Source: an uncultured bacterium (GTDB taxonomy: Bacteria; Bdellovibrionota; JACOXK01; 2-02-FULL-40-11). From it: a DNA stretch of 64,000 nt. Position 1 is the first letter of the stretch; every line of letters begins with the position of its first letter. The DNA lies in NCBI GenBank assembly GCA_964371555.1, contig CAYJMQ010000002.1:5521-69520 (forward strand), written 5' to 3'. Positions 4,639 to 35,256 of the stretch are shown here, piece by piece. The notes below the pieces were generated by a model. It did not search any database. It was not told the DNA's origin and was given only the letters and a program-made list of their open reading frames with translations. The translations under genes and the position numbers were made by a program.

Positions 4639-5196
4639 GTGAGCCGGTTGAGAGTTCTACTGGTCTATCCCAATTATATGATGGTCAATCTTCTTCCTAC
4701 CAATATTGGGATCCTGACCGCCTGTCTCGTTCGCGAAGGATACGAAGTCGATCTTTTTGATACCACATTCTACCGGACGGCCGAAAAAAGCATTGATGAA
4801 ATGCGGACTGAAAACCTTCAATTTCGGAAGTTTGATTTGTCCGAGGTTGGTATTTTTTATAATGAAAATCCAGTCGATGCCGATTTCGTAAAAAAGGTGA
4901 GAGCGTTTAAACCCGATCTGATCGGGGTTTCCACCGTTGAAGACACATGGCCGCAGGCGCTCAAACTCCTTCATGCAATCCCGGAAACAGAGCGCCCCAA
5001 AGTGATCGTGGGGGGGATTTTCCCCACACTTGCCCCGGACATGGTCATTGGCGACAGCGCTGTCGATTATATCTGTATCGGAGAGGGGGAGGAGGCGCTG
5101 CTTGAGGTCTGTCGTGAACTTGAAAAGGGAAATGAACCGACCCGTGTCAAAATACCTGGGGGAAATCGGGGGGGAAGATTTTCAAGAACTGTATGA
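4639..5196 (+). CDS. B12-binding domain fragment of a class B radical SAM enzyme (N-terminal part, interrupted by a frameshift)
   Basis: Cobalamin-binding-domain-like sequence (LLVYPNY...DLIGVSTVED...VIVGGIFPT); reading frame terminates just after the G7 run at 5168-5174. Confidence 0.6.
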   Translation: MSRLRVLLVYPNYMMVNLLPTNIGILTACLVREGYEVDLFDTTFYRTAEKSIDEMRTENLQFRKFDLSEVGIFYNENPVDADFVKKVRAFKPDLIGVSTVEDTWPQALKLLHAIPETERPKVIVGGIFPTLAPDMVIGDSAVDYICIGEGEEALLEVCRELEKGNEPTRVKIPGGNRGGRFSRTV

Positions 5197-6212
5197 GACC
5201 CCCCATTCCATTGGAAGAGGTTCCGTTTGCCGATTTTACATTGTTTGAAGAGAAGCGTTTTTTTCGGCCGATGCAGGGAAAGATTTTTCGCATGCTCCCG
5301 ATTGAAACCGATCGGGGGTGCCCCTACACCTGCCGGTTTTGTGAGGCCCCTCAATTAAACAGAATTTATAGGACTGAGACTGCTTCGAGATATTTCAGGC
5401 GCAAAGACTGGAAATTGGTGCATGAAGAGCTTGGGCATTACGTGGAAAAATACAATATGCAGTACGTCTATTTCAACGCGGAAACATTCCTCGCCATGTC
5501 GCAGGAAGAGTTTGATCAGTTCATTGAGATCTACTCGGACTTTAAAATCCCCTTTTGGTGCCAGACGCGAATTGAAACGATTAATCTCGAAAAGTTGCGC
5601 CTCATGGAAAAGGTAAACTGCAACCGGATTTCAGTCGGTCTTGAGCATGGGAATGAGGAATTTCGGCGCAAGGTGGTCGGAAAGGGATTTACGAACCAGA
5701 TGATGATTGAAAATTTTAAACTCTTTGACAAAGTTTCAGTTCCAGTGTCGATCAATAATATTCTGGGCTTTCCAGACGAAACGCGGGAGATGGTCTTTGA
5801 TACAATCGAACTCAACCGGCATCTGACTACTGATAGTGTTAACGCCTATTATTTTGTCCCTTACCGGGGGACCCCGTTTTACGAGATTTGTCTCGAAAAG
5901 GGATACATTAGTAAAGATACTGTAACGAAGCCTCTCACCATGGGATCGTGTTTAAATATGCCGTATCTTTCATCAGAGCAAATTCAGGGTTTGGTCAGGA
6001 CATTCAGTCTTTATGTAAAATTTCCAAAATTTGATTGGCCTAAAATCAGAAGAGCGGAGAAGATGGATGAAGAGGGGAACCGTATTTTTAAGGAGCTTGC
6101 GGAAAAATATTATGAATATTTCTTTGATGATGACTTTAAGGCATACAGAAGGGCATGCTTCAATTCCCATATCTATCACTACCAGGTTCCCCAATATCTT
6201 GCGGCGTCCTAG
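5193..6212 (+). CDS. radical SAM domain fragment (C-terminal part of the same B12-binding radical SAM enzyme)
   Basis: CPYTCRFC (CxxxCxxC) cluster; in-frame upstream sequence (PIPLEEVPFADFTLFEE) continues the B12-rSAM linker without a start; adding one G to the G7 run fuses it to the 4639 ORF. Confidence 0.6.
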   Translation: MRPPIPLEEVPFADFTLFEEKRFFRPMQGKIFRMLPIETDRGCPYTCRFCEAPQLNRIYRTETASRYFRRKDWKLVHEELGHYVEKYNMQYVYFNAETFLAMSQEEFDQFIEIYSDFKIPFWCQTRIETINLEKLRLMEKVNCNRISVGLEHGNEEFRRKVVGKGFTNQMMIENFKLFDKVSVPVSINNILGFPDETREMVFDTIELNRHLTTDSVNAYYFVPYRGTPFYEICLEKGYISKDTVTKPLTMGSCLNMPYLSSEQIQGLVRTFSLYVKFPKFDWPKIRRAEKMDEEGNRIFKELAEKYYEYFFDDDFKAYRRACFNSHIYHYQVPQYLAAS

Positions 6213-8585: not shown

Positions 8586-9005
8586 TCATATCAAGAGTTG
8601 GGTAATTTTCTGATGAAGCATTTTCCCTATTTGAAGCCAATCGTTAATTTCTTCTTCACTTAAAGACGGGGATTCAATACCATATTGGCTTTGATTTCTG
8701 AGATCTTTTAATACTTCCATCGTAGAAATCTCGCTTTTTAATGATTTGCCATAAATTTCCTTTACATAGAGGATAGTGCAATAATGAGAGCGTTCTTTAA
8801 TACCATCTTTATAGAGAAGAGCCTTGATCATATGGAAAAAAGCTTGATAAAGCCTTTGCTCGGTAACTTCTAAAAGTTTTGCATCCCTAAGCTTAGGAAT
8901 TTCATCCAAAATAGAAACCCCTCTTTTCAGAGATTTTTTGGCCAAAGATAAATCCGCAGTCATCTTTTTTAATTGTCCTGTGTCAAAGCATTTCTTAAGC
9001 GACAT
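8586..9005 (-). CDS. HEPN domain protein (toxin of a HEPN/MNT toxin-antitoxin pair)
   Basis: 139 aa all-helical protein; HEPN-like LRNQSQY motif region; overlaps the upstream MNT gene by 11 nt. Confidence 0.6.
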   Translation of the reverse strand: MSLKKCFDTGQLKKMTADLSLAKKSLKRGVSILDEIPKLRDAKLLEVTEQRLYQAFFHMIKALLYKDGIKERSHYCTILYVKEIYGKSLKSEISTMEVLKDLRNQSQYGIESPSLSEEEINDWLQIGKMLHQKITQLLI

Positions 9006-9531
9006 TAAAAACCTCTAGATATGTTGTTAAGGACTGTAGTTTTAACCGGTAAAAAAATTCTGAATCCTTTTGTTGCAAATCCTTTAAATACTGTTTTGTT
9101 AAATAAATAACATTGATTTGTCGAGAAAATTCTTTGGATAATGCGTCAATAATTGGTCGAATTCTATCACTCTCTCCTTTGGGCAAATAGACCCATATAT
9201 CGATATCTGAATTTTGGTCAAAGGTTCCTTGAGCAAAGCTTCCATAAATTCCACAGGGGCCAATTTTATTAAGCGCCTTCCAAGCTTTTGAATTTTCCAG
9301 TTTGGATTCTAAAATGAATTTTCTATATCCTATTAACTTTTGTGAAGATGGATTAACTGAATAAAAAACCCTTCGTAAATCACCTTTTTTTTTGATAATC
9401 ATCTTCTTTTTAAGAAGCCAAATGAGCCATTTTTGTGCTTGGGAAGGAGAAATTCTCAATTTTCTAGCAATTTCATTGGGATAACTTGGCCCATTTCCTA
9501 TGAGATCAATGATGTTAAAAGTAATTTTCAT
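8995..9531 (-). CDS. minimal nucleotidyltransferase (MNT) antitoxin with N-terminal winged-helix domain
   Basis: GIYGSFAQGTFDQNSDIDIWV is the GSx9-13DxD nucleotidyltransferase signature; N-terminal wHTH-like segment; gene order MNT then HEPN is canonical. Confidence 0.65.
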   Translation of the reverse strand: MKITFNIIDLIGNGPSYPNEIARKLRISPSQAQKWLIWLLKKKMIIKKKGDLRRVFYSVNPSSQKLIGYRKFILESKLENSKAWKALNKIGPCGIYGSFAQGTFDQNSDIDIWVYLPKGESDRIRPIIDALSKEFSRQINVIYLTKQYLKDLQQKDSEFFYRLKLQSLTTYLEVFNVA

Positions 9532-9592: not shown

Positions 9593-9749
9593 TAAAGGCA
9601 AATATGTTTAGGACTTAGCGTTTGGTATCAAAAATGCCATTCTTGCGGGAGAAGTAGACGCATTTACTATCAAAACGGTTCAAGTAGTTATTCCAATAAA
9701 AAATTTATTTCTTGCACCCTCTGCCCAGACATGGAAAAACTAAATATAG

Positions 9750-11441
9750 ATGGATCGTGTCAGTGATGTAACCCTTCTCGATTGCACCATCCGGGACGGG
9801 GGATTTTTTAATCAGTGGAATTTTGAAGACCGGGTTGTCAGGGATGTCTATCGCGCTGTGTCGGCGTCTGGGGTCGGAATTGCCGAGCTTGGATACAGAG
9901 TCAATGAGAAATTTTCTGAACCAGAAAGGCTCAAAGAGCCATATGGAAAATGGAGATTTTCTTCTGAAGAGGATCTGAGGCGGGCGACTGAGGGGCTCAA
10001 ATCCCAGGGTGGCGCCAGGATCGCCGTTATGTCAGATTTTGGAAAAGTCGATCTCACCGATTTCGCTCAAGCCAGAGAAAGTGTTGTCGATATTGTCCGA
10101 TTGGCCGCGCACAAAGATCAGCTCTTTAAAGCGATTCAGTTTTTGGAAAAAGTGAAGGAAAAGGGATACGAGGTTTCCTTAAATGCAATGGGGTGTGCCG
10201 ATCTTACAGAGATAGAACGGAAAGAATTGATCCTGGCGTTGAAACGCTCATCTATCGATATGATCTATCTGGCCGATAGCTACGGATCGATCCTTCCGCA
10301 CCAGGTCAGATCCCTCTTTGAGCCCTTTTTGGAGATTCAAAATATTAAAGTCGGATTCCATGCGCATAATAATTTACAAATGGCTTTTGCCAACGCGCTG
10401 GAGGCGATCGCCTGCGGGGTTCATCTTATTGATTCAACGCTCTACGGAATGGGGCGCGGCGCCGGAAATTTATGCACGGAAATCATCGTTCTCTATCTTC
10501 AACTCTTAAATCGTAAAAAATATAACGTGATTCCGGTTTTGAATTGTATCGATTCTTATTTTCTCAAGTTAAAACAAAAACTGAACTGGGGATATCAGCT
10601 CCATTTTATGCTCTCCGGGATGTATCAATGTCATCCCAACTTTGCCAAAGAGCTCGTCGAGTTTCGGGAATACGCGGCAGAAGATATCTGCCGGATTATG
10701 GAAAGAATTAAGGAGGCGCGGCCGATCGGCTATCGCCCCGATCTGATTCGCGGGATTATTGAAAAGGGATATGTTGAAACGCTGGCAAAAGACGCGGTTC
10801 CTTATGTCGGTCGCCATGAGGGGAGAGACTTTCTCATTCTCGCGAATGGACCTTCTTTAAAACAATTCAAATCTCAAATCGATCGTTTTATTGAAAAGTA
10901 TGATCCCGTGGTGATGGGGACGAATCACCTTTCTGGATTATTTGCTCCAGACTATCATGCTTTTAATAATAAAAAGCGATTTATGAGATATATTGATTCG
11001 GTGAGCCCATCTTCCCAGTTATTGCTCAGTCAATATTTTGATCAAAAAATGGTTCGGGATTATACGTCAAGACCCTACGAGAATCTTTATTATAAAGATA
11101 TGCTCGGGAATGAATTTAATATTAAAAATGGCGTGGTTCAGACGAACTGCAGGACCATTTCCGTTCTTCTGATCGGAATTGCAATTGTCATGGGGGCGAG
11201 ACAGATTTATATTGCGGGAATGGATGGATATCTGGGATCGGATATTGAAAATTCTCTTCATTATTATCGTGAAGATGATGAAAACCGAAGCTCCGAAATG
11301 CTTAAAGAGAGGCATTGTTCATGTCAAAACTTTCTTTCTCAGATCAACGACTATTTGCCGGCCGTTGGGCGTGAAAAGCCCTGTTTTCTCACCCCCACGA
11401 GCTACCAGGTTTCATACAGGGATATTAATACATACTTATGA
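9750..11441 (+). CDS. HMGL-like (DRE-TIM metallolyase) aldolase domain fused to a Maf/MptE-like (DUF115, MAF_flag10) domain
   Basis: The N-terminal LLDCTIRDGGF and HAHNN motifs are typical of the pyruvate carboxyltransferase/HMGL-like TIM barrel; the C-terminal 220 aa (ILANGPSL...YIAGMDGY) match the DUF115 architecture of Campylobacter motility accessory factors. Confidence 0.55.
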   Translation: MDRVSDVTLLDCTIRDGGFFNQWNFEDRVVRDVYRAVSASGVGIAELGYRVNEKFSEPERLKEPYGKWRFSSEEDLRRATEGLKSQGGARIAVMSDFGKVDLTDFAQARESVVDIVRLAAHKDQLFKAIQFLEKVKEKGYEVSLNAMGCADLTEIERKELILALKRSSIDMIYLADSYGSILPHQVRSLFEPFLEIQNIKVGFHAHNNLQMAFANALEAIACGVHLIDSTLYGMGRGAGNLCTEIIVLYLQLLNRKKYNVIPVLNCIDSYFLKLKQKLNWGYQLHFMLSGMYQCHPNFAKELVEFREYAAEDICRIMERIKEARPIGYRPDLIRGIIEKGYVETLAKDAVPYVGRHEGRDFLILANGPSLKQFKSQIDRFIEKYDPVVMGTNHLSGLFAPDYHAFNNKKRFMRYIDSVSPSSQLLLSQYFDQKMVRDYTSRPYENLYYKDMLGNEFNIKNGVVQTNCRTISVLLIGIAIVMGARQIYIAGMDGYLGSDIENSLHYYREDDENRSSEMLKERHCSCQNFLSQINDYLPAVGREKPCFLTPTSYQVSYRDINTYL

Positions 11442-12364
11442 ATATGGAACAGGTTTCAATCGTTTTCCCAGTCTATAATGAAGAAAATAATCTGGTTGTT
11501 CTGTATGAAAAAGTGAAAACAGCCTGCCAAATGGCAGGGGTTTCAAGCCAGATGGTTTTCGTGGATAACGGGAGCGAGGATGCGTCATTAGATATTATAA
11601 GACAGCTCAGCCGAAATGATCCCCAGGTAAGCTATATCTCTCTCTCCCGGAATTTTGGTCATCAGAACGCCCTCTTTGCGGGGCTCATGCACTGTAAGGG
11701 GGATGCCGTTATTACCATGGATGCCGATCTTCAACACCCCCCCTCCCTGATTCCCGAGATGATCCGTTTGTGGAGAGAGGGGAATGAAGTTGTTTATACC
11801 GTCAAAAAAAGTGAAAACATCCCCTATTTGAAACGCCTTGTTTTAAAAATTTTTTACAAGTTGATGACAAGGGTTTCCGGGCTTGAGTTTCGTTTTGGTC
11901 AGTCGGACTTCAGGCTGATCGATAAAAAGGTTCTGGAGATAGTCTTAAAGATGCCTGAGTATCATAAATTCCTGCGGGGGCAGATCCGCTGGGTCGGCTT
12001 TAAACAGACAGGCATCACCTTTGCCATTGAGCCAAGATACAGCGGTCAATCAAAATTTTCTGTTAAAGATTTGTTTGTATTTGCAATCGACGGTCTATTC
12101 GGTTTTTCCAGACACCCTCTGCATTTGATCATGCTGATCGGCTTAGTGGTTGGATTTTTTTCTTTCTTATACATGCTGGCTGAGGTTATTTTGCCATGGC
12201 TTTTCAATTCCCCAATGCCTCCAGGGTTTGTTACCCTGGCGGCTGCTATTTTTTTTCTAGGCAGCATTCAGTTGATAGCCATTGGCGTTTTGGGAGAGTA
12301 TGTGGGGAGAATATTTGATCAGACAAAACAACGCCCCAATTTTATTATAAAAGAGAGGTCTTAA
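11438..12364 (+). CDS. GT2 polyprenyl-phosphate glycosyltransferase (GtrB/ArnC/Dpm1-like) with C-terminal TM helices
   Basis: VSIVFPVYNEE...VFVDNGSEDAS...DADLQHPP GT2 motifs plus two C-terminal hydrophobic helices. Confidence 0.75.
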   Translation: MNMEQVSIVFPVYNEENNLVVLYEKVKTACQMAGVSSQMVFVDNGSEDASLDIIRQLSRNDPQVSYISLSRNFGHQNALFAGLMHCKGDAVITMDADLQHPPSLIPEMIRLWREGNEVVYTVKKSENIPYLKRLVLKIFYKLMTRVSGLEFRFGQSDFRLIDKKVLEIVLKMPEYHKFLRGQIRWVGFKQTGITFAIEPRYSGQSKFSVKDLFVFAIDGLFGFSRHPLHLIMLIGLVVGFFSFLYMLAEVILPWLFNSPMPPGFVTLAAAIFFLGSIQLIAIGVLGEYVGRIFDQTKQRPNFIIKERS

Positions 12365-12370
12365 AAATAG

Positions 12371-13111
12371 ATGACCCGGGCAAAGGTTTTCATTTTGTGT
12401 GGAGGGAGGGGGCGTCGCCTTGAGCCGAATCATCCCGGTCTTCCCAAAGTATTGGTGGAACTCCGGGGGAAACCGATCCTTCAGCATATTCTCGAATTTT
12501 ATATTCAGCGTGAGTGGCGTCAGTTTGTTATCTGCGCCGGTTACCGGAGCGATCTCGTTCGTGGTTTTCTATCCCAATTTCAATCCAATGCCGAAATAGA
12601 GATCTCAGACAGCGGCATCGATGCCGGAATGCTTGAGCGTCTTTATCGTGCGCGGCATCTCATCGGTGAGCGGGCGGTCATTACTTACGGAGATACGTTT
12701 ATCGATATCGATATCGATCAGATGCTCAAGGAACATCTGAAAGGAGGGAGAGATCTCACCTTGACAGTCGCCGACATCCGGACCCCTTTTGGCATTGTTA
12801 AAATAGACAAGGACCAAAAGGTCAAATCGTTTGAGGAAAAGCCGGTTTTCTCGTACTATATCGGGCACATGATTCTTGAGCGCAGGGTCCTCGACGAACT
12901 CGATGAACGATTGATTGTTACGCCGGATGGGGAAGGAATCGTCAAACTGTTTCAACTGCTTGCAAGACAAAAGAGACTACACGCCTATAAACATAAGGGG
13001 CTAAAATTGACATTCAATACCTGGGATGAACATAAGAGCGCGGAAGATGTATTTGTGAGGTTTTTTACTGAAGCCGCAAGTCCATTTCCGGAGGAAATGG
13101 ACGCGCAGTAA
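12371..13111 (+). CDS. sugar-1-phosphate nucleotidyltransferase, glucose-1-phosphate cytidylyltransferase-like (RfbF/DdhA family)
   Basis: ILCGGRGRRL (GxGxR) motif, ICAGYRSD; length and motif spacing match RfbF. Confidence 0.7.
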   Translation: MTRAKVFILCGGRGRRLEPNHPGLPKVLVELRGKPILQHILEFYIQREWRQFVICAGYRSDLVRGFLSQFQSNAEIEISDSGIDAGMLERLYRARHLIGERAVITYGDTFIDIDIDQMLKEHLKGGRDLTLTVADIRTPFGIVKIDKDQKVKSFEEKPVFSYYIGHMILERRVLDELDERLIVTPDGEGIVKLFQLLARQKRLHAYKHKGLKLTFNTWDEHKSAEDVFVRFFTEAASPFPEEMDAQ

Positions 13112-13136
13112 AGTCGCAAGCCATTTTCGAAAGAAA

Positions 13137-14153
13137 ATGGCGCGCAGCATGAATATAAGCCTTTTTATGATGTCATTTAGTGGAAAAAAAGTTCTGGTTA
13201 CCGGTGGGGGTGGATTTATCGCCTCTCATCTCACCCGGCGCCTGGTCAAAGAAGGGGCCGATGTCTGGATCACCGCAAAATATCACAGCATCATTGACAA
13301 TGTCCGGTTAGCGGATGTGTGGGGGAAGATCAACTGTCTTGAGGCCGATTTGAGAAATCCCGATGCGCTGAAAGAGATTGCCGCAATTCAACCAGAAATC
13401 ATTTATCACATGGCTGCCTATAATCATGTGGGAGATAGCTTCGCGAATGTTACAGAGGCGATTGATGTGAATGGAACAGGATCAGTGAATTTGCTGGAAG
13501 CGTATGGAGGCTATGAAAGATTTATTTATGTTTCTTCTTCTGAAATTTATGGGCATCAGGAGGCTGTTCCTTTTTGCGAAGAGGCGCTGCCATTTCCAAT
13601 CTCCCCCTACGCTGTCGGAAAATATGCCGGTGAATGTTACGCGCGGCTCAAATGGCATGTGGAGAAAAAACCGATTGTCGTTCTTCGCCCGTTTAATACG
13701 TTTGGCCCGTATCAGAGCCCGCGGGCGATTATTGGCGAGCTCATTATCAAATGTCTCAAAGGGGAAGATATTGTGACGACCGATGGAATACAGACCCGCG
13801 ATTTTAACTATGTTGAAAATATGGTTGAGGCGTTTATATTAGCGGCATTTCATGAAGAGGCGGTTGGGAAGATCATCAATGTCGGTTCAGGAAGGGAGAT
13901 CTCCATTCGGGAGCTTACGACAAAAATTCATGCCGTTGCGCAGTCCCGCTCAAGACTTCGAATCGGGGAGCTGCCGTACCGTCCGACAGAAATCTGGCGG
14001 ATGGCTGCGGACGCGAAGCGGGCAAAACAGATATTGGGATGGACGCCGGGAGTCGATTTTGAAGAGGGACTGAAAAAAACGATTGAATGGTATCGAAAAT
14101 TTATTGCCGTCTTCTACCACGAAAGTTCCGAACTGCGTCGTTTGAGTGAATAA
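13137..14153 (+). CDS. NAD-dependent epimerase/dehydratase (NDP-sugar dehydratase-like)
   Basis: VLVTGGGGFIASHL Rossmann, YAVGKYAGE (YxxxK); the start may instead be the Met at 13167; a hairpin (13120-13141, GAAA loop) overlaps the annotated start. Confidence 0.7.
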   Translation: MARSMNISLFMMSFSGKKVLVTGGGGFIASHLTRRLVKEGADVWITAKYHSIIDNVRLADVWGKINCLEADLRNPDALKEIAAIQPEIIYHMAAYNHVGDSFANVTEAIDVNGTGSVNLLEAYGGYERFIYVSSSEIYGHQEAVPFCEEALPFPISPYAVGKYAGECYARLKWHVEKKPIVVLRPFNTFGPYQSPRAIIGELIIKCLKGEDIVTTDGIQTRDFNYVENMVEAFILAAFHEEAVGKIINVGSGREISIRELTTKIHAVAQSRSRLRIGELPYRPTEIWRMAADAKRAKQILGWTPGVDFEEGLKKTIEWYRKFIAVFYHESSELRRLSE

Positions 14154-15780
14154 GAGGTTCCTACATCTCTCCGTTTTATTTTTGGTATTAATCTTGAGCC
14201 TTTTTCTGGTTCTTCCCACCATTCATAATCATATCAACGACCCCAATGCGATTGTCTATTTTAATCATGATGAAGGGTATCAGATGGATCTTATCTGGTC
14301 GTACTATCGCGGTGAAATTCGTCCGAGCTATGCGGGGAATGTCGATTATGGCCTGGAAATGGTTTACATCACCGATCTTTGCCGTCTCTTTTTTTCCAGA
14401 TTTATCGATTTTACTCCAGGTTTATTTGTTGTCATCATGAGATGGCTGCATCTCATGGGGTGGCTCTTTGCGTTGGTTGTCTTTTGGCGAATGGTCGGAC
14501 GTCATTTTAACAGGGGGTGGCAGCGATCGGCTTCAACCCTTCTGCTTTCGGTTCATCCGGCCTTTGCCTATTTTTCAAATAACAATAAACCCGATTTTTT
14601 GGTCCTCTTATTTATGATCATCGGACTTGACTATTCTCTGCGATTGGTTGAGCGCCCTTCAAAGAAGGCGCTCCTCATCTCTGTCGCTTCAGCGGCGATC
14701 GCTGTTATCATAAAGTTTGCCGGTGTTTTTCTTCTGCCTGCGATTGTTGCAGCGCTCTACTTGGGAAAGGAGGGGGGCAAAGGGGGCAAGGGGGAAGAAC
14801 GGGAGGGGGGCGTTGCAAAGAAAGTACTCTCAGATGGCTTAATCGTCTTTGCCATCTTTGTCTCGGCTATGTTGATCTTTGGTTTTCGATGGTTTCTGGA
14901 CCCTGCCCATTTGATCAATACGTACGTTCAGAATGGACTCGATTTTTCGGGTGGTTTTATGATCAGGGATCTTTCTGTCCCGGCAGCGTTTGTAAAAACA
15001 TATTTGTCGACTCTTGTTAAGAGATTTGTCTCTTTCGATCTGATTATTCTTTCCCTGTTTGGAATATATCTCTTTATGGAGATTTTCTTTAAAAGAGAAG
15101 GATTTTCCTTTAGGCCCGACCAAAGGAAGAAGAAGAAAAGGCTTGTACTGATCATCTATCTTGTCCCCTTTCTTTTATCAATCTTTACCCCTGGCCGTTT
15201 TACCCGGTACCATGCCCTCCCCTTTTTTGCGGCGATCTACATTCTCATTTTCGAGGGGATGGGGATCATGATGTTTGTATTTCGTGACTATCAGATCGCA
15301 AAGGGGATTGCAAAAATTGCGCTGACACTTCTCGTTCTGTTCGACATCTCCGTAAATGCCGCAAGGACAGTCAGGGAAAGGGTTACTCAGTTTCATCAGC
15401 GGGAAGGTGTGTCATTTGAGATCTCTCAATGGTGGCGGCGGCATATTCCCCCGGAAGAAAAGGTCGTAACCGATCATATGACACGCGTCTATGTTCCGCC
15501 CGAACACAAGAACATCACGATTTTTAGAGGATATCAGATTAGCCGGCTCGAACAACTTCGCGGCATCATAAAAGAGGGGGTAAAGGAGGGGGTGAAAGAG
15601 AGTCGGCCACGCTACCTCTATTATAATGAAGGGCCGAGTGGAGGTAAGGCATTTCCGCCGATCGATCTCATGCTTCCGGGTCAAAGGGTAAAATTAGCTA
15701 AATTATTTGAAACTGAGGGGCGGAAATATCAGAGACGGGAAGGAGACAGATTTCTGATCTATGAACTGATGTATGAGTAG
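14146..15780 (+). CDS. polytopic membrane protein, GT-C-like glycosyltransferase (ArnT/PMT-like) with Gly/Lys-rich low-complexity loops
   Basis: More than 10 hydrophobic segments; low-complexity GKEGGKGGKGEEREGG and KEGVKEGVKE loops encoded by G-rich repeats. Confidence 0.45.
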   Translation: MNKRFLHLSVLFLVLILSLFLVLPTIHNHINDPNAIVYFNHDEGYQMDLIWSYYRGEIRPSYAGNVDYGLEMVYITDLCRLFFSRFIDFTPGLFVVIMRWLHLMGWLFALVVFWRMVGRHFNRGWQRSASTLLLSVHPAFAYFSNNNKPDFLVLLFMIIGLDYSLRLVERPSKKALLISVASAAIAVIIKFAGVFLLPAIVAALYLGKEGGKGGKGEEREGGVAKKVLSDGLIVFAIFVSAMLIFGFRWFLDPAHLINTYVQNGLDFSGGFMIRDLSVPAAFVKTYLSTLVKRFVSFDLIILSLFGIYLFMEIFFKREGFSFRPDQRKKKKRLVLIIYLVPFLLSIFTPGRFTRYHALPFFAAIYILIFEGMGIMMFVFRDYQIAKGIAKIALTLLVLFDISVNAARTVRERVTQFHQREGVSFEISQWWRRHIPPEEKVVTDHMTRVYVPPEHKNITIFRGYQISRLEQLRGIIKEGVKEGVKESRPRYLYYNEGPSGGKAFPPIDLMLPGQRVKLAKLFETEGRKYQRREGDRFLIYELMYE

Positions 15781-15809
15781 CAAGTCCATTTCCTTTGGCA
15801 ATGGACTTG
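15781..15809 (+). terminator. hairpin (10-bp stem caagtccatt/aatggacttg, 9-nt loop) followed by a pyrimidine-rich stretch; possible terminator
   Basis: Starts right after the stop codon of the 14146..15780 gene; shares a 14-mer with the 3' end of the 12371..13111 gene. Confidence 0.3.
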
Positions 15810-15858: not shown

Positions 15859-16398
15859 ATGAAAAAGATCCTCGATTCCCATGGCAGGGTTTTTGGTATC
15901 ATTAATATTTTCGATTTTCTGTTCCTCCTCTTTCTGATCCTTCTTCTTCCAATGATTTATCATGGCTATAGGCTCACCCATGTAAAACAGGAATTTGTGA
16001 AAGCGGGATATCATCCGGCCAGTGATGTGCCGGCGTCAAAGATTTTGCTGGAGAAAGAGATCCCTCTTGTCCTGCAGATGAGAAATCTCACCCATGAAGA
16101 AGCTTCTTTTATTAAAAAAAGAATAAATAAGATTGAGTGGGAGAACGATGTCAGATTTATAAGGCTGCTCAAAAAGCAAACAGAGCCCCTGATGCTTGGT
16201 ACGAGATCCCTTATGCAGGTACATGGACTCGAGTTTCTGGTTTCTGTTCGGATTTCAGTTTTGAGAAGAAATTATTCCGTGCCAGATGTATTATTTCGAA
16301 ACGCAAAGATCCCGGAGCAGATTGTGAACATCATTATAGGCGAGAGGAGATTTAAGGGGTTTCTTCAGCCCCTAAATTCTAATGAGCAGAATATATAG
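15859..16398 (+). CDS. hypothetical membrane-anchored protein
   Basis: ORF with a single N-terminal hydrophobic helix; no recognisable family. Confidence 0.35.
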   Translation: MKKILDSHGRVFGIINIFDFLFLLFLILLLPMIYHGYRLTHVKQEFVKAGYHPASDVPASKILLEKEIPLVLQMRNLTHEEASFIKKRINKIEWENDVRFIRLLKKQTEPLMLGTRSLMQVHGLEFLVSVRISVLRRNYSVPDVLFRNAKIPEQIVNIIIGERRFKGFLQPLNSNEQNI

Positions 16399-16807
16399 AG
16401 AAAGTTTCATCTATCGGCTTTTTTTTCAGCGCCCCCTGATCGAGAATGGAGGAGAGACATTTCTCGAGCGATCAGTTGTTTTCCGGCGTTATCTTTTATT
16501 TTTTGAAAAAATGAGACTATTTTTATTTCAAAGCGTCGGCTATAGGCTTATAAAAAGGGGACACGATTTTTTTGTGAGATATGGTTTCAGAATAGTCGGA
16601 GTCCTTGTCCTCTTTTCTTCTTTTTACTTCTTTCTATCCAGGTTTATAGTCGAGGATTCTCGTTTTACCCTCTTTGAATTTTTCTTTTATTTAGATTTAT
16701 TCTTTTTAGGTTTTTTTTTCTTTATTCCCCTAAACCATTTGCCAGGCTATTATGAGAGAAGCTGGCTCAAAAAATATCTCTTTTCAAAAAAATTGTTCGC
16801 GCGTTAG
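16382..16807 (+). CDS. hypothetical small membrane protein
   Basis: Hydrophobic, Phe-rich 141 aa ORF in an AT-rich stretch; may be spurious. Confidence 0.25.
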   Translation: MSRIYRESFIYRLFFQRPLIENGGETFLERSVVFRRYLLFFEKMRLFLFQSVGYRLIKRGHDFFVRYGFRIVGVLVLFSSFYFFLSRFIVEDSRFTLFEFFFYLDLFFLGFFFFIPLNHLPGYYERSWLKKYLFSKKLFAR

Positions 16808-17807
16808 CGTCATTATTCCGACTTATAACCGCGCAGCCTATTTAAAAGAAGCGATTGAGAGCGTCCTACAGCAAAGATTCTCCCCCCCCCTATCCCCAAC
16901 TGATGTTGAGCTGATTGTTGTCGATGATGGTTCCACAGATGAAACCGGGAATCTGCTCTCTTTTTATAAAGAGAGAATAAAATGTCTTTATCAGAGAAAC
17001 CGGGAACGGGGAGCGGCAAGAAATCTCGGCATTCTCTCGTCTCTAAATGACCATGGGGATGACAATGGGGATGACCATGGGGGGGAATATATCGCCTTCC
17101 TCGACTCTGATGATCTTTGGCTTCCGGACCATTTACAACTCTGCGTTTTGGCCCTTGAGAAGGAGCCCGATTATGGGGTCGCCTTTTCAAACGCCTATCA
17201 GATCGATGCCTGCGGAAAAATCATCGCTAAAAATGCAAAAAATGTTTGGAAGGGAGATGTTCTTGAAAAACTGATTAAAAAATACTCATCTGTGGGGTGT
17301 AATTCATCCTCTTCTGTCGTGAGAAAAGGGGTGTTCAGTCAAGGGGGTCTCTTTTGTGAAGATCCAGAGCTTTCTGGATCGGAAGACTGGGAGATGTGGG
17401 TGAGGCTTGCGAATCGCGCTCGTTTTCTTCCCGTCGATGCCTATACGGTAAAACTAAGATGTCATGCTGAACAGTCATCACGGAGGATTGAGAAGATGGA
17501 AAAATCAATGACGCTTGCCCTCGATCTCGTTTTTCAGAATAAAGCGCTGATACCTAAAATCGAAAAATGGAAAAGAGAAGGGTATAGCAGTCTCTATACC
17601 ATTATCGCAACGAACTATTGCGGAGCAGCTCATTTTTCGAGAGCTTCGTATTTCTTAAAAAGAGCTGTTTTAGAGTATCCTTTGGCCCTGATTTTCAATA
17701 AACTGGTTTTATATACATTCTTTAGAATGCTTTTGGGAAAGCGTTTGGTTGCGCTTTTGAGAAAGCTCAAATTGCTGGCATATCGTCTTCGATATGGAGA
17801 AAGATGA
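16752..17807 (+). CDS. GT2 family glycosyltransferase containing C9 and G7 homopolymer tracts and a 12-bp tandem repeat
   Basis: VSVIIPTYNRAAYL...VVDDGSTDET...AFLDSDD GT2 motifs; C9 at 16882-16890 encodes SPPLSP; 12-bp repeat at 17047-17087 encodes DHGDDNGDDHGG. Confidence 0.7.
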   Translation: MREAGSKNISFQKNCSRVSVIIPTYNRAAYLKEAIESVLQQRFSPPLSPTDVELIVVDDGSTDETGNLLSFYKERIKCLYQRNRERGAARNLGILSSLNDHGDDNGDDHGGEYIAFLDSDDLWLPDHLQLCVLALEKEPDYGVAFSNAYQIDACGKIIAKNAKNVWKGDVLEKLIKKYSSVGCNSSSSVVRKGVFSQGGLFCEDPELSGSEDWEMWVRLANRARFLPVDAYTVKLRCHAEQSSRRIEKMEKSMTLALDLVFQNKALIPKIEKWKREGYSSLYTIIATNYCGAAHFSRASYFLKRAVLEYPLALIFNKLVLYTFFRMLLGKRLVALLRKLKLLAYRLRYGER

Positions 17808-17851: not shown

Positions 17852-19603
17852 ATGGGTATCAAGGTTGTCATTTGCAATGTTCCGCTCCGTTCTGAAGATG
17901 CCCGGACTACCTATCCCCCGCTTGGCGCGATGTTTATCACGCAGGCGTTAAAATTGAGGGGATTTAATGCCGCATTTTACGATATCAACTATTTTCGCCC
18001 CCCTTTTGAAGAGATTAGAGACTATTTCTTGCGTCATCGGCCAGATGTCATTGGCATCAGTGCTACAGTTTCGACAACGTATGCATATCTGAAAAGGCTC
18101 AGTTCGCTGATTAAAGAAATACTCCCCGATTCAATGATCGTTGTCGGGGGGGCTATTACCGCCTCTTCGGACATTATTCTTAAATTCACAAAGGTCGATA
18201 TTTGTGTGACCGGGGAAGGGGAGCAGGTGATCGTGCATCTGCTCGATTATTTTTCGAAACAGGGGTTGGTAAAGATCGATGAAGAGTTAAAAAAGGTTCT
18301 TGGTATCTGTTTCCTCAATCAAATGGGAGAGATGGTCTTTACCGGCTACGAGATACAGATCCCGGCGCACGAAATACCAGATCCTGATTATGAGATTTTA
18401 AGGGAGTATTCGGAGTTGGATGGCTATATCATCGATCCGAAGTATTATCCCCAATTTAAGTACGATCGACGGACGAAGGAAATGAAAAGACAGGGAAAAA
18501 AGATGGCAACCGTTGTGACCTCGCGTGGCTGTATCGCCCGATGCACCTTTTGTCACAGATGGCAAAAAGGGCTTCGGATTTTTCCGGTAGACCGGGTGAT
18601 CAATCATATTAGATTTCTGATGGAGCGCCACGATGTTGGTTTTATATCATTCGGGGACGAAGATTTTGGGGCTTCACAGAGATGGGTTGAGGAGTTCGTC
18701 GAAAAAATTTCGACTTTGGACATATTATATCGGATTGGCGCGATCCGGGTCGATCATGTTACTCTCCCCGTCCTTAAAAGATATCAAGAGAGCGGCTGCG
18801 TTGCCATTCATTACGGAATGGAATCGGGGAGCGATCGAATCCTTTCTGTGATGGAAAAGAGAGCCACTGTCCAGATGAATCGCGATGCCGCAATGATGAC
18901 ATTCCAGGCAGGTTTGCAGACCGTTCCGGCAGCGGTTGTCGGAATGCCGGGGGAAACTTATGAGACGATAGAGGAGACCGCTGAGTTTCTTAAGGATATT
19001 ACAGAATTTTATCCCTACGACCCGGTTATCAGCCCCAATCTGCTCGTTGCGCTTCCGGGAACCCCCGTCTATGAGTACGCGAGATTTAAGGGTTTCCTCG
19101 GTCAAACGCCGGAAGATGAGGAGAAGTACCTCGTCCGGATTTCAGATCATGGGGGTGATTCCCCCGTTCAGTTTAATTTTACCGATTATCCCTATTTTGC
19201 GGTTCAGTCGTGGGTGCGGTGTCTGATTATCTCTGTTTTGTATAATTATTATAAGAAAAATAATCTTTTGACACTCTCCAATGGAATGTTTGTTGTTTCT
19301 TTATTTCAATTTTTCCTAGGGATAAGGAGGGGACATTCTTTCTCCTGCAGTCTGATGAGTCATCCCCTTTTCTATCGCTTCAGATATGTATTGACACTGA
19401 TTCAGGTGATGATTGTAAATTTTAAAGAGTGCGATACAAAGTTGTTTCTCGAAAGATGCGTCGAACTTCTGGTTTGGCCATTTAAAAGAAAGGCATTCAC
19501 AAAATATATTTCTCTCAGGCAGTTTATGAATGAACGAACCTCCGGTCTCCAGGCAATCAAAGCAAATCTGACAAACCCGCTGCAGCTGCGATTAGGTCGT
19601 TAG
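17852..19603 (+). CDS. B12-binding radical SAM protein (class B rSAM), copy 2
   Basis: N-terminal cobalamin-binding domain (DVIGISATVS...VVGGA), CIARCTFC CxxxCxxC cluster. Confidence 0.8.
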   Translation: MGIKVVICNVPLRSEDARTTYPPLGAMFITQALKLRGFNAAFYDINYFRPPFEEIRDYFLRHRPDVIGISATVSTTYAYLKRLSSLIKEILPDSMIVVGGAITASSDIILKFTKVDICVTGEGEQVIVHLLDYFSKQGLVKIDEELKKVLGICFLNQMGEMVFTGYEIQIPAHEIPDPDYEILREYSELDGYIIDPKYYPQFKYDRRTKEMKRQGKKMATVVTSRGCIARCTFCHRWQKGLRIFPVDRVINHIRFLMERHDVGFISFGDEDFGASQRWVEEFVEKISTLDILYRIGAIRVDHVTLPVLKRYQESGCVAIHYGMESGSDRILSVMEKRATVQMNRDAAMMTFQAGLQTVPAAVVGMPGETYETIEETAEFLKDITEFYPYDPVISPNLLVALPGTPVYEYARFKGFLGQTPEDEEKYLVRISDHGGDSPVQFNFTDYPYFAVQSWVRCLIISVLYNYYKKNNLLTLSNGMFVVSLFQFFLGIRRGHSFSCSLMSHPLFYRFRYVLTLIQVMIVNFKECDTKLFLERCVELLVWPFKRKAFTKYISLRQFMNERTSGLQAIKANLTNPLQLRLGR

Positions 19604-24436: not shown

Positions 24437-25912
24437 GTGTGTTCCACTGATCTTCGAGTCACAAAAGCGCTAATCCCCGCCGCTGGGAGAGGGCTGAGAT
24501 CGTATCCTAAGAGCAAACATCTCCCCAAAGGGATGTTTGAAATCGAAAACAGACCGATTCTTGAGAACACGCTTATCCTGCTCAGGGATAAGATGAATAT
24601 TCGCGACATTTTTATGATCGTGGGGCATCAGAAAGAAAAAATAATAAATTATTTTAAAAATGGAGAGCGATGGGGGATCGATATTTCTTATATCGATTGC
24701 CCGGATCCTGAAGAAGGGATAGGGAGGGGGATTCTCTATGCTGAACAGTCGTTGCAAGAGCCTTTCATCTGCATTCTCGGTGATGAATATTACAGCCGTT
24801 CCAATCACGATCTTTGTCTGACATTACCGGATCAGATCTTTGCGGTCTGCGCGATTAAATATTCGAATGATATTAAATCAATAAAAAAAAATTATACAGT
24901 GGAGATCGGGGATGGTCTGATTCGGAAAATTATTGAAAAACCGGCTGTCAACCCGTCATCGCATTTAAGATATCTGGGATGCGGAACCTGGTTATTCAGA
25001 CCGGAAATTTTTGAGTGGATTAGAAAAACAGGGCATTCGGGGAGATCCGGAAAAGTCGAACTGATGGATGCCCTCGATCTGGCAATACAAAACGGGCGCC
25101 TGATCAAACCGTTTTATCTTGAGGGGGACTATTTCAATATCAATTCAATCGAAGACATCAACCAGTGCAATTATGTCGTTCGCTCGTCACACTTTTCTGA
25201 AAAAAGGATCAGTTTGATTATCCCTTCCCGCAATGAAGAGCAGACGATAGCGGCTGTCATTCAGGATGCCCTGCCGCATGTAGACGAAGTTATGGTAGTC
25301 GATAACCGATCGACCGATCAAACAGTGGAGGCAGCTCTTTCAGCGGGGGCGAGGGTAGAGAGAGTCAACCTCAAAGGGTATGGGGATACGATCCGACATG
25401 GTCTCGATCATGCCACTGGAGATATTCTGATTGTCATGGAGGCCGATTATTCATTTCGTGCAAAAGATTTGGGGAAGTTTCTCGAATATATTAAGGATGC
25501 TGATATGGTCATTGGAACCCGGACCACACGACAACTCATTGAACAAGGGGCCAACATGAATGGCTGGCTCCGGTTGGGGAATTTGATTGTTGCCAAACTG
25601 GTTGAGCTTTTATGGTGGGAGAGTGAGCCGCGTTTTACAGATGTCGGCTGTACTTACAGGGCAATCTGGAAAGAGGCGTATCAAAAAATCCGAAACGACC
25701 TCCATTCAACGGGACCGGAATTTTCGCTGGAAATGATGATAAAAATGTTAAAGTATAAACAACGGATCTTAGAGATTCCCATTTCGTATTATCCGCGTTT
25801 GGGAGGAATTTCAAAACACTCGAACCAGTGGTTTGGGATCTTTAAAACGGCGGCAAGAATGTTGCATCTTACCTTCATGGAAAGATTTTTTACAAGAGGA
25901 CGCCCGAGATGA
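24437..25912 (+). CDS. bifunctional sugar-phosphate nucleotidyltransferase / GT2 (Dpm1-like) fusion protein
   Basis: N-terminal ALIPAAGRGLR nucleotidyltransferase fold (~260 aa), then ISLIIPSRNEE...VVDNRSTD...MEADYSF GT2 domain. Confidence 0.7.
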   Translation: MCSTDLRVTKALIPAAGRGLRSYPKSKHLPKGMFEIENRPILENTLILLRDKMNIRDIFMIVGHQKEKIINYFKNGERWGIDISYIDCPDPEEGIGRGILYAEQSLQEPFICILGDEYYSRSNHDLCLTLPDQIFAVCAIKYSNDIKSIKKNYTVEIGDGLIRKIIEKPAVNPSSHLRYLGCGTWLFRPEIFEWIRKTGHSGRSGKVELMDALDLAIQNGRLIKPFYLEGDYFNINSIEDINQCNYVVRSSHFSEKRISLIIPSRNEEQTIAAVIQDALPHVDEVMVVDNRSTDQTVEAALSAGARVERVNLKGYGDTIRHGLDHATGDILIVMEADYSFRAKDLGKFLEYIKDADMVIGTRTTRQLIEQGANMNGWLRLGNLIVAKLVELLWWESEPRFTDVGCTYRAIWKEAYQKIRNDLHSTGPEFSLEMMIKMLKYKQRILEIPISYYPRLGGISKHSNQWFGIFKTAARMLHLTFMERFFTRGRPR

Positions 25913-27363
25913 GTTCCAAACTGAAAAAGGCTTTTTTGTGTTATTTGCCGATTGGCCGGTATCAGAGAGGGGAGGATCGTTGCCAGGCCGATATTGATGG
26001 ATCGACCACACAGGCCCCGCACGCGCCAAACGATTTGGGGTACATCGCCGCGCAATTGGAAAAATTCTCTGTAAAAAGTTTTATCAGGGATTATCCCGCT
26101 GAAGGATTATCTGAAGAACAGTTGATAGAAGATGTTAAAGCGTTTGAGCCGGACATTTTTTTTATCAGCACAACCTTTCCGACATTTGAAAAAGACGCCT
26201 TATTCTTAAAAAAAATAAAATCTTTAAAGCCGGACATCCTGACGATCGCAAAAGGGAGTTGCTTTTTTTCACTCCCGCTCAAAGATTTGAAAAATGAAAA
26301 TTACGCCTCTCTTGATATCGCAGTTTATGGGGAATCGGAGTTTATTATTGTAGATATTATCGAAAGCCTGCGGGGGGGAATGCCCCTTACAGATGTTTCC
26401 GGATTGCTTCTCTACATCGGGAGTCCGGAGGTTCGGCGCACCCCTCAGCCAGCTTTTGAGGAGAATCTCGATCTTCTTCCATTTCCAAAAAGAGAGTTGA
26501 TAAAGAATGAATTATATACCTGCCCCAATACGGGAAAGCCGATGGCAACGATTGTGGTATCAAGAGGGTGTCCTTTATCGTGTATATTTTGTCTGACTCC
26601 GATTATTTCCGGCCAAAAATTAAGAAAGCGTTCGGTCCAGAATGTGCTGGAGGAAGTAAAGGAGTGTGTCCATCATCATGGAATCAGCGATTTTTTTATG
26701 AGGGCTGATACATTTACCATGGATAGAGGATACGTAAAGGAATTCTGTCGGCAATTGCTTTCCGAACGTCTTTCTATTTCATGGGTTGCAAACAGTACGA
26801 CCACAGCGGCGCTCGACCGGGAAATGCTCGGTCTCATGAAAGCGGCCGGCTGCTGGCTTATCGCGTTTGGCATAGAGTCTGGCAATGAAGAGATCCAAAA
26901 AAGAATCAAACCCGGAATTCCGGTTGAAAACAGCTTTAAAGCTGTCCGACTCTGCAAGGATCTGGGAATTAAAACCTTCGGATTTTTTATGATAGGACTC
27001 CCCCACGATTCAAAATCAACGATGAACGACACTTTTCATCTTATGAAAGAGCTAGACTGCGATTTTATTGAGGTCCATATTGCCCTCCCTTATGACGGGA
27101 CCCCCTTAAATCGCTTGTCGAAAGAATTGGGGTTGCTTAAAGATTCTGTTCTCGGTCATAATTATTTTTCAATTCCCTATACCAGCGGTACTCTTCATCT
27201 GACAAGAAAAGAGATTATTCAGTTCAGAAAAAAAATGCTTGCGCACCATTATTTGCGTCCAACCTACATGTATCGAACGTTAAAGGGCTGCCGCTCCACG
27301 CACGAAGCGTTGAATTATCTCAAATATGGGACAAGGCTCCTTTATAATCTGGCTGTAAAATAG
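25909..27363 (+). CDS. B12-binding radical SAM protein (class B rSAM), copy 3
   Basis: Cobalamin-binding region (DIFFISTTFPT...ILTIAKGS), CPLSCIFC cluster, ELP3-like barrel. Confidence 0.8.
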   Translation: MSSKLKKAFLCYLPIGRYQRGEDRCQADIDGSTTQAPHAPNDLGYIAAQLEKFSVKSFIRDYPAEGLSEEQLIEDVKAFEPDIFFISTTFPTFEKDALFLKKIKSLKPDILTIAKGSCFFSLPLKDLKNENYASLDIAVYGESEFIIVDIIESLRGGMPLTDVSGLLLYIGSPEVRRTPQPAFEENLDLLPFPKRELIKNELYTCPNTGKPMATIVVSRGCPLSCIFCLTPIISGQKLRKRSVQNVLEEVKECVHHHGISDFFMRADTFTMDRGYVKEFCRQLLSERLSISWVANSTTTAALDREMLGLMKAAGCWLIAFGIESGNEEIQKRIKPGIPVENSFKAVRLCKDLGIKTFGFFMIGLPHDSKSTMNDTFHLMKELDCDFIEVHIALPYDGTPLNRLSKELGLLKDSVLGHNYFSIPYTSGTLHLTRKEIIQFRKKMLAHHYLRPTYMYRTLKGCRSTHEALNYLKYGTRLLYNLAVK

Positions 27364-31860: not shown

Positions 31861-32643
31861 CTATGTTGGAAGGGATCCTTCTTTGTTCGCGTGATTTCTC
31901 AAGGGGCTGATCGGTTGGGGAAAGGGGGGGGAAAGAGGGGGAGAAAGGGGAGGGCGCAAACCGTGATCCGGCATACCGAGTTCCTGAAAGCCGATCGTAT
32001 ATTTTGAATTCTTCGTTACGCGGAAGGGAAAAAAGTTCATGACGTTCGCAGCCGATATATCATGATGCCGGGCATATTTTAGCTCGATGACGGTGTCATA
32101 GCATTTAGCCCAATGAAACATTTGTTGGGATAATTTAAATATTCTTGCGGTTATTAATTCTGAATCAACCGTCAAACGAAATTGTCTATCAAAAGATTGA
32201 TAATATTTTCGTTTGTAGCGATTGACCAAAACTGGCATGAGAAGTTCCATGAGATTTTTTGTTGTCAGGCCGATTTCGGATTCTAGAATAGTCTCTTTTA
32301 GAATGTCAGCCATCTTATCATCTTTAAGGAAAGAAAAGGGCTTCAAATCATATTGTTTCTTAACTGTCAGAGAATTCTTTTTTATTTTGAGTTCCAATAC
32401 GGGTTTTGAAATATCACCCCACAATTGGCCATACCAACGAACCCGGATCTTTTGGCGATAGGGATGCCCCTCAATGGAATCTCGATAACACTCACTGTCA
32501 TGGGTGTCAAAATAGATATTGTTAATATATCGTTCATGATAGATTTCAGAAAATGCCAGTGGATGTAGTCGGATCAGTAATTCTATTTGGGGACGTGTTA
32601 ACTCTTTTGTAACAAATTTATTCTCGTATCGTATGTCACTCAT
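31861..32643 (-). CDS. VTC domain protein (CYTH-like, polyphosphate-polymerase-like) with Pro-rich C-terminal tail
   Basis: N-terminal RYENKF (ExK), NIYFDT and KIRVRWYG motifs characteristic of the VTC domain; PPLSPPLSPPFPQP tail encoded over a G8 tract (31924-31931). Confidence 0.6.
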   Translation of the reverse strand: MSDIRYENKFVTKELTRPQIELLIRLHPLAFSEIYHERYINNIYFDTHDSECYRDSIEGHPYRQKIRVRWYGQLWGDISKPVLELKIKKNSLTVKKQYDLKPFSFLKDDKMADILKETILESEIGLTTKNLMELLMPVLVNRYKRKYYQSFDRQFRLTVDSELITARIFKLSQQMFHWAKCYDTVIELKYARHHDISAANVMNFFPFRVTKNSKYTIGFQELGMPDHGLRPPLSPPLSPPFPQPISPLRNHANKEGSLPT

Positions 32644-35254: not shown

Positions 35255-35256
35255 TT

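Follow-up and report, generated by a model that had tools for sequence, protein, structure and literature searches.

Is a glycosyltransferase gene that carries long repeats within its coding sequence a phase-variable switch, or is its mutability incidental? The question is raised by a 64,000-nt stretch of contig CAYJMQ010000002.1 from an uncultured bacterium (the whole stretch is hereafter referred to as the window). An initial annotation, made from the sequence alone, had noticed a family 2 glycosyltransferase (GT2) gene with a run of nine cytosines (C9), a run of seven guanines (G7) and a 12-nt tandem repeat, and had proposed it as a candidate phase- or length-variable locus. The open reading frame (ORF) and all three repeats were confirmed directly in the sequence. 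Our analysis suggests that this is probably a functional GT2 gene with young, slippage-type insertions in two loops, and that its mutability is incidental and not a selected switch. The features in question, all on the plus strand, are:

16752..17807: intact GT2 (GT-A fold) glycosyltransferase gene, 351 amino acids (aa), assigned from the ORF, Pfam, AlphaFold2, Foldseek, homologues and the ratio of nonsynonymous to synonymous substitution rates (dN/dS)
16879..16904: loop-1 insertion region, net +12 nt relative to the closest relatives, from DNA alignments, a loop-length census and predicted local distance difference test (pLDDT) scores
16882..16890: C9 homopolymer, tCC CCC CCC Cta, codons 44-47 (S-P-P-L) within F-S-P-P-L-S-P
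17045..17080: loop-2 insertion, about 33-36 nt, from alignments, loop-length census and pLDDT
17047..17082: 12-nt tandem repeat ATGACCATGGGG, 3.0 copies, in frame, encoding DHGDDNGDDHG (Tandem Repeats Finder score 65, 91% matches)
17079..17085: G7 run ending the array, G110-G111-E112; G3-G6 in orthologues

A predicted functional GT2 glycosyltransferase

The protein matched Pfam PF00535 (Glycos_transf_2; E=2.1e-29, score of 103 bits, the cut-off being 23.3), and a profile of 88 homologues reached GT2 structures, for example K4 chondroitin polymerase at 1.7e-68. An AlphaFold2 model built on 88 homologues had a pLDDT of 91.5 and a predicted template-modelling score of 0.89. Foldseek searches with this model returned the GT-A enzymes 6p61 (a Leptospira glycosyltransferase), 2z86 (E. 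coli K4 chondroitin polymerase) and SpsA, with a probability of 1.00 for 6p61, 2z86 and 1qg8; identity to solved enzymes was 20-24%, which is too low for donor or acceptor to be inferred. In the DxD motif, D118-S-D120-D121, residues D118, D120 and D121 were invariant across the 88 homologues. The family match, the modelled nucleotide-binding N-terminal β-α-β fold and the DxD motif place the product in the GT2 family with a predicted GT-A fold.

Pairwise dN/dS for the gene was 0.15 against the orthologue of relative L001 and 0.16 against that of L006, compared with 0.11-0.34 for neighbouring genes. The gene is under purifying selection (dN/dS of about 0.15) and is predicted to be functional. 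A pseudogene or a gene under relaxed constraint was ruled out by the dN/dS values of 0.15-0.16 and the intact frame. Alignments with the L001 and L006 orthologues contained 16-22 gap columns in the GT2 gene; only the nearby PMT_2 gene was comparable.

Effect of slippage in the tracts

The initial annotation had stated that a ±1 slip in C9 would truncate the enzyme, and this proved correct: the C8 and C10 alleles reach a stop after 53 and 50 codons, respectively. Consequences of other length changes are:

C7 and C11 alleles of C9: stop after 49 and 54 codons, respectively
G6 allele of the G7 run at 17079-17085: product of 173 aa
G8 allele of the same run: product of 119 aa

The C7, C8, C10 and C11 products all end before strand 2 and the DxD motif, and are predicted null alleles. 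The C6 and C12 alleles stay in frame, with one proline lost or gained. Gain or loss of one 12-nt unit adds or removes 4 aa in frame; the unit is a multiple of three and is therefore unable to switch phase. At the level of sequence, the prerequisite for a phase switch at C9 is present, in that a ±1 change would be predicted to switch the gene off.

The C9 tract and loop 1

C9 lies 13% into the GT2 ORF, in the loop joining helix 28-39 to strand 52-58 (loop 1). It had been described as the longest homopolymer of the window, which holds for G/C runs; overall it is tied with three A9 and four T9 runs.

The closest relatives were metagenome sequences, including Hainich groundwater contigs and a metagenome-assembled genome (MAG; an identical protein is labelled 'Deltaproteobacteria bacterium' in one source). 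The nearest GT2 relatives were about 78-82% identical in protein, and more distant homologues (44-49% identity) came mostly from Candidatus Omnitrophota. No second sequence of the same species was found by exact-protein look-up, in the 90% cluster (which has a single member), or in scans of GTDB genomes and JGI metagenomes. Orthologues compared at the C9 site had 82% amino-acid identity to the GT2 protein of the window. The loop-1 site reads as follows:

L001-L005: ...TATCCCCCTTCC..., C5, in frame
L006 and L052: ...GTCCCCCCTTCC..., C6, in frame
L007: ...GTCCCTTCTTCC..., C3, in frame
Window: TTCTCCCCCCCCCTATCCCCAACT, C9, in frame

A long C-tract is not maintained at the orthologous site, where only C3-C6 were found (L001-L007 and L052), and none of the five distinct alleles of the GT2 site was an OFF allele. 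A loop-length census was made over 88 homologues of 33-81% identity. Between anchors Q41 and I55, loop 1 has 7 aa in 85 of the 88, 9 aa in two nearest relatives and 13 aa here. Its mean pLDDT in the AlphaFold2 model was 77 (residues 41-50). Under local codon usage, S-P-P-L would be spelt as C9 with a chance of about 1% (TCC 0.17 x CCC 0.31^2 x CTN 0.71); because this spelling is expected so rarely, the DNA tract would appear to have arisen before the peptide.

The 12-nt array, the G7 run and loop 2

The units of the 12-nt array are near-identical, with 1 mismatch in 36 nt. Four tandem arrays with a Tandem Repeats Finder score of at least 65 were found in the window, compared with 0.025 expected per shuffle (40 dinucleotide shuffles); the array is far beyond chance. 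It was present in none of 87 other GT2 homologues.

The array lies in loop 2, which joins helix 85-96 to strand 113-116 and where the internal confidence of the AlphaFold2 model is lowest (mean pLDDT of 53 for residues 101-110, below 50 for residues 100-102). Between anchors G93 and G111, loop 2 has 5 aa in 86 of the 88 homologues, 9 aa in one nearest relative and 17 aa here. The ancestral state is S-S-H/Q-G-E-Y (TCT CAC GGG GAA TAT). The 12-nt inserts found here in L006 and L052 (DLFP / DVSP) are unrelated, and in the window the loop holds about 33 extra nt, made by the tripled 12-nt unit. Both GT2 sites are variable in length among close relatives, as had been proposed: C3, C5, C6 or C9 at the first, and 5, 9 or 17 aa in loop 2.

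Loops 1 and 2 are the sole internal low-pLDDT stretches of the model, and each leads from a helix to the next strand. In the GT-A fold the nucleotide/DxD site lies at the C-terminal ends of the strands, and loops entering the N-terminal strand ends are on the opposite face. From the secondary-structure order and GT-A topology, both loops should sit on the side of the sheet opposite the nucleotide/DxD site. That the two loops are indel hotspots throughout the family was ruled out, the lengths being fixed in 85-86 of 88 homologues.

The array also gives a G4-N8-G4-N8-G7 pattern (17055-17085, plus strand), which loosely fits a G-quadruplex motif in the coding strand. A G-quadruplex was not chosen in the minimum-free-energy fold of the array computed by ViennaRNA with G-quadruplex energies.

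Chance expectation of G/C runs

A codon-shuffle null was obtained by keeping the amino-acid sequences of the ORFs of the 64-kb window fixed and shuffling their synonymous codons 500 times. CCC makes up 31% of the proline codons of the window and GGG 34% of its glycine codons. The outcome was:

G/C runs of at least 9 nt: 0.81 expected (probability of at least one, 0.56), 1 observed
G/C runs of at least 8 nt: 2.26 expected, 2 observed
G/C runs of at least 7 nt: 7.4 expected, 17 observed

Over-representation of runs of at least 8 or at least 9 nt relative to this null was not found in the window, and C9 is not beyond chance given local codon usage. All 17 runs of at least 7 nt are in frame inside ORFs, mostly as codons for GG or PP dipeptides. 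When other G6-G7/C7 runs of the syntenic block were compared with relatives at 10-15% DNA divergence, they proved conserved in length, as with C7 at 11737 and G7 at 21579; G7 at 18146 was kept in L006 and broken by a substitution in L001.

Short G/C runs are not avoided in the coding sequence of the window: 44 runs of at least 6 nt were observed and 27 expected, and runs of 6-7 nt were about 1.6-2.3 times commoner than expected.

The VTC gene and a shared C-tract module

The initial annotation had drawn support from a G8 tract in a VTC gene. The tract exists, at 31924-31931, but lies outside the domain, in a non-conserved tail. The gene (31861..32643, minus strand) has its VTC domain at residues 5-220, and the tract, which is C8 on the coding strand, falls at codon 238 of 260. 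The proline-rich tail reads RPPLSPPLSPPFPQPISPL and was not found in the best homologues (at most 48% identical, about 230 aa). It is a lineage-specific Pro-rich (PPLS)n sequence made of 10-12-nt repeats (31917-31954). As a switch the VTC tract was rejected: with C7, C8 or C9 the protein would have 247, 260 or 270 aa, the tail being the sole difference.

Comparison of tract pairs revealed that the VTC tract and its flank are near-identical in DNA to the C9 segment of the GT2 gene, so that the window's two longest G/C tracts are paralogous as DNA:

31910..31931, minus strand: VTC C8 and flank, near-identical to the GT2 C9 segment
GT2 copy of the module, plus strand: CCCCCCCCC TATCCCCAACTGAT
VTC-tail copy of the module, minus strand: CCCCCCCC TTTCCCCAACCGAT

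About 22 nt are common to the two sites (16882-16904, plus strand, and 31910-31931, minus strand), with the pattern C8-9 T W T CCCCAAC Y GAT. Downstream, 12 of 14 flank positions match, the best value among 13,366 pairs of C tracts of at least 5 nt; the next-best flank match among the 136 pairs of tracts of at least 7 nt was 8 of 14. After the run the two modules are read in different frames, and the DNA similarity is independent of frame. Were the VTC run a C9, its tail would become ...PPLSPPLSPPLSPTDQ, with SPPLSPTD as in the GT2 insert.

GT2 orthologues already carry CCCCCCTTCC-GAT at the module site, and because of this it is plausible that C9 originated through C-rich microhomologies, by gene conversion or a short templated patch; copies of a dispersed motif would be the alternative. 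A search of 51 of the 52 related loci gave no further copies of the module. A close VTC orthologue was not found, and a transfer between GT2 and VTC may have run in either direction.

The split radical SAM gene

A radical SAM gene of the window had been described as frameshifted at a G7 run. The gene is indeed split; the site of the frameshift, as shown by intact relatives, is an A-run upstream of that tract. The relevant features, all on the plus strand, are:

4639..5196: B12-binding ORF, first half of the split gene
5193..6212: Radical_SAM ORF, second half, joined to the first by an ATGA stop/start overlap
5149..5152: A4 run with one base lost relative to A5 in intact relatives, from DNA alignment
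5168..5174: G7 run in the linker, downstream of the A-run, already in the downstream frame and not the frameshift site

Intact relatives of 523 aa, P0244 and P0245, are 96% and 81% identical, respectively, to the downstream ORF. Their junction DNA reads GTC AAA AAT ATC TGG GGG AAA (VKNIWGK); the junction in the window, GTCAAAATACCTGGGGGAAA, has one A fewer. Restoring an A at 5149-5152 yields VKNTWGKSGGKIF, which matches both P0244 and P0245. Restoring a G in G7 yields VKIPGGNRGGKIF, which does not match the relatives. The window sequence TGG GGG AAA TCG GGG GGG AAG already reads in the downstream frame. The A4 frameshift could mark a true lesion, which would make this a pseudogene, or an error of assembly. 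Compared with L050, there is a 6-nt in-frame indel at the position of the G7 run (5168-5174).

Origin of the insertions and alternative explanations

We propose that, in the lineage of the window, two helix-to-strand loops of a functional GT2 recently gained in-frame insertions at the DNA level. Loop 1 would have grown by expansion of a Pro-rich C-tract or by a templated patch, from C5/C6 to C9 with a net gain of 12 nt, and loop 2 by tandem triplication of a 12-nt unit. C9 and G7 would then be by-products of the insertions and of codon usage favouring CCC and GGG, and they would make the gene likelier than its orthologues to be inactivated by frameshift. This account, in which the insertions are tolerated and no switch has been selected, is the one we consider probable. 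Some observations weigh against it. C9 is near the start of a surface-glycan ORF, where switches are classically found. G/C runs of at least 7 nt exceed the codon-shuffle expectation about 2.3-fold, so homopolymers are not avoided. Nowhere in the syntenic region is divergence greater than in the GT2 block, which could reflect diversifying pressure on the glycan step. Finally, nine is the modal length of phase-variable polyC/G tracts in Campylobacter jejuni, and G8/G9 tracts there switch at a high rate (PMC3401435); in a permissive background a C9 would thus be of sufficient length.

Several of these points are also what a genuine contingency locus would draw on. Reversible ±1 slippage at C9 would produce a subpopulation without GT2 and with an altered surface glycan, allowing, for example, escape from phages or predators, and the 12-nt array would supply in-frame length variation. 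The length and position of the tract fit known switches, the stubs of 49-54 aa lack the DxD motif, the tract, like most of its kind, codes for a loop that can be dispensed with, and the gene lies within a glycan island of more than 40 kb, in a region more diverged than its flanks. What speaks against a switch is the comparison among relatives: tract lengths differ (C3, C5 or C6 against C9), none is out of frame, no OFF allele occurs among the five, and all relatives have short tracts. Runs of at least 8 and at least 9 nt are at the codon-shuffle expectation, other G7/C7 runs are length-stable in relatives, the array is divisible by three and gives no phase switching, and the supporting cases of the VTC and radical SAM genes both fail. 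Moreover, the window has 17 G/C runs of at least 7 nt in 64 kb, compared with 29 in the whole genome of C. jejuni NCTC11168 (PMC4965091); therefore, such runs are here compositional and not markers of switches. Of the proposal of a phase- or length-variable gene there stand the prerequisites for slippage and the in-frame variation in length; a contingency locus we regard as unlikely. What defines such a locus is ±1 heterogeneity, be it between strains or inside a population; of its other defining features, neither a tract maintained in relatives nor an excess of long tracts was found here. Its more specific forms are distinctly unlikely, namely that C9 is a selected ON/OFF glycan switch in a free-living or episymbiotic groundwater bacterium of a candidate phylum (Omnitrophota-like), or that the GT2/VTC C-tract module (C8-9 TWT CCCCAAC) is a dispersed, copyable and mutable cassette that seeds hypermutable sites.

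The insertions might instead be adaptive, the homopolymers merely encoding Pro-rich and Asp/His/Gly-rich loops that form a new interaction or metal-binding surface; from GT-A topology, both loops should share one face of the domain. Two insertions in loops whose length is invariant in 85-86 of 88 homologues, purifying selection on the gene, and the richness of DHGDDNGDDHG in metal-ligand residues would agree with this. Both loops are, however, predicted to be disordered, the single mismatch in 36 nt between units makes the array very young, the nearest relatives hold the unrelated inserts DLFP and DVSP at the same spot, and neither insert is conserved in any homologue, which leaves an adaptive addition improbable. 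The tract lengths could also be sequencing or assembly artefacts of a MAG, without biological meaning: the window belongs to one 71-kb contig of a MAG, and the one-base deficit in the radical SAM gene (A4 instead of A5) is the commonest type of assembly error. Yet the frame is intact through C9, the array and G7 into conserved GT2 sequence, where a miscount would break it, and every G/C tract of at least 7 nt in the window is in frame within an ORF. An artefact is, in our estimate, very improbable.

Comparison with known systems

The C. jejuni genes wlaN/cj1139c resemble the GT2 gene in having an intragenic G/C tract of 8-9 nt towards the 5′ end of a glycan glycosyltransferase, where a ±1 change truncates the product; cj1139c is a GT2-family β-1,3-galactosyltransferase. 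C. jejuni differs in that its AT-rich genome has a strong excess of such tracts, with documented length polymorphism and ON/OFF alleles, whereas here the 17 G/C runs of at least 7 nt in 64 kb are a by-product of codon usage and the orthologues are without a long tract. C. jejuni is not known to have mismatch repair, and its weakness or loss permits high slippage rates. No mismatch-repair gene was found among the 36 larger ORFs of the window scanned with Pfam, a scan that reached about 40.7 kb.

Fucosyltransferases of Helicobacter pylori belong to other glycosyltransferase families. The H. pylori genes futA/futB/futC and β-(1,3)galT, like the GT2 gene, combine a poly-C frame tract and in-frame tandem amino-acid repeats in one glycosyltransferase. 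The copy number of the repeats differs between strains, β-(1,3)galT has tracts of C14-C16, and heterogeneity within a strain was seen by clone sequencing (PMC2806470). In H. pylori, 7-aa repeats occupy a separate region of the protein, while here a 4-aa unit is repeated three times inside a loop of the catalytic domain. The Fut-type arrangement of a poly-C switch (about C12-C16) plus a heptad-repeat ruler is not found in this gene, which has C9, a 4-aa unit and belongs to the GT2 family. The fut/β-(1,3)galT genes are the nearest architectural counterpart, with different glycosyltransferase families, tract lengths and repeat placement.

In Neisseria (lgtA/lgtC/lgtD/lgtG) and Haemophilus influenzae (lic2A/lgtC), simple-sequence repeats within the ORFs of lipooligosaccharide glycosyltransferases create surface-glycan variants by turning expression ON and OFF reversibly. 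These differ in being host-adapted pathogens in which switching is documented, and Haemophilus uses tetranucleotide repeats; the lineage of the window is environmental. The evidence favours a different category, ordinary slippage-derived insertions in low-complexity loops, which show the same young, near-perfect tandem duplications, each a multiple of three in length, and the same slightly expanded homopolymers, all within disordered surface loops of a domain that is conserved elsewhere; nothing essential differs.

Should C9 nevertheless switch, this would be an early sign of pathogen-type contingency loci varying surface sugars in uncultured environmental bacteria. Homopolymer-driven glycan phase variation, known mainly from host-adapted pathogens, would then extend to uncultured lineages of the environment, where it would presumably hedge against attack by phages or predators. 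Two cautions follow for similar annotations. With codon usage favouring CCC and GGG, coding G/C runs of 7-9 nt are common, length-stable across related species, and alone are not markers of phase variation. A frameshifted neighbour should be mapped against intact relatives before a nearby homopolymer is blamed.

Genomic setting

The GT2 gene lies in a glycan-biosynthesis island of more than 40 kb, which takes up most of the first 40 kb scanned with Pfam. The island contains several GT2, GT4 and PMT_2-like transferases, four epimerase/dehydratase genes, nucleotidyltransferases, a methyltransferase, an acetyltransferase, three B12-binding radical SAM genes and a CotH-VTC-DUF4956 trio. The radical SAM genes are paralogous and lie at 4639-6212, 17852-19603 (directly downstream of the GT2 gene) and 25909-27363; the three enzymes may methylate sugars or modify the glycan by other radical chemistry. 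The trio is formed by adjoining genes for a CotH-kinase-like protein (872 aa), the VTC-domain protein and a DUF4956 protein (31861-35943, minus strand), beside GT2 and methyltransferase genes.

The gene order common to the relatives is epimerase, PMT_2, two small ORFs, GT2, B12-binding radical SAM, a 591-aa ORF and Ldh_2; upstream of 9692 there is no synteny with L001. The segment 15814-17771 (two small ORFs and GT2) has 75% nucleotide identity to L001, compared with 88-89% for the flanks 9692-13092 and 17852-19279. The small ORFs are unannotated, encode 179 and 141 aa and have dN/dS values of 0.28-0.34. The second of them is:

16382..16807, plus strand: 141-aa ORF upstream of the GT2 gene, overlapping its start by 56 nt, syntenic in relatives, dN/dS 0.31-0.34

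It had no Pfam hit. A T9 run lies inside it at 16711-16719; fusion of this ORF to GT2 by slippage at T9 was rejected, being blocked by a TAA at 16731-16733 in the GT2 frame.

The PMT_2-like gene (14146-15780) has two in-frame tandem repeats, GGGGGCAAA in 2.4 copies (14773-14794; a G-rich 9-nt unit) and TAAAGGAGGGGG in 2.4 copies (15569-15598). The latter is a 12-nt tandem duplication that forms a window-specific 7-aa insertion, EGVKEGV, relative to the L001 orthologue. Since this gene has a 12-nt duplication like that of GT2, the process is lineage-wide and not specific to GT2.

Copies of a hairpin-forming repeat, GCAAGTCCATTTCC-GGA-GGAAATGGAC and variants, were found at gene junctions (13071-13147 and 15780-15806), where a tandem pair separates the nucleotidyltransferase gene from the epimerase gene and a single copy follows the PMT_2 gene; they may be terminators or elements resembling repetitive extragenic palindromes. 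The glycan island also holds, at 8586-9531 (minus strand), a HEPN/nucleotidyltransferase (MNT-type) gene pair of the kind usual in toxin-antitoxin modules.

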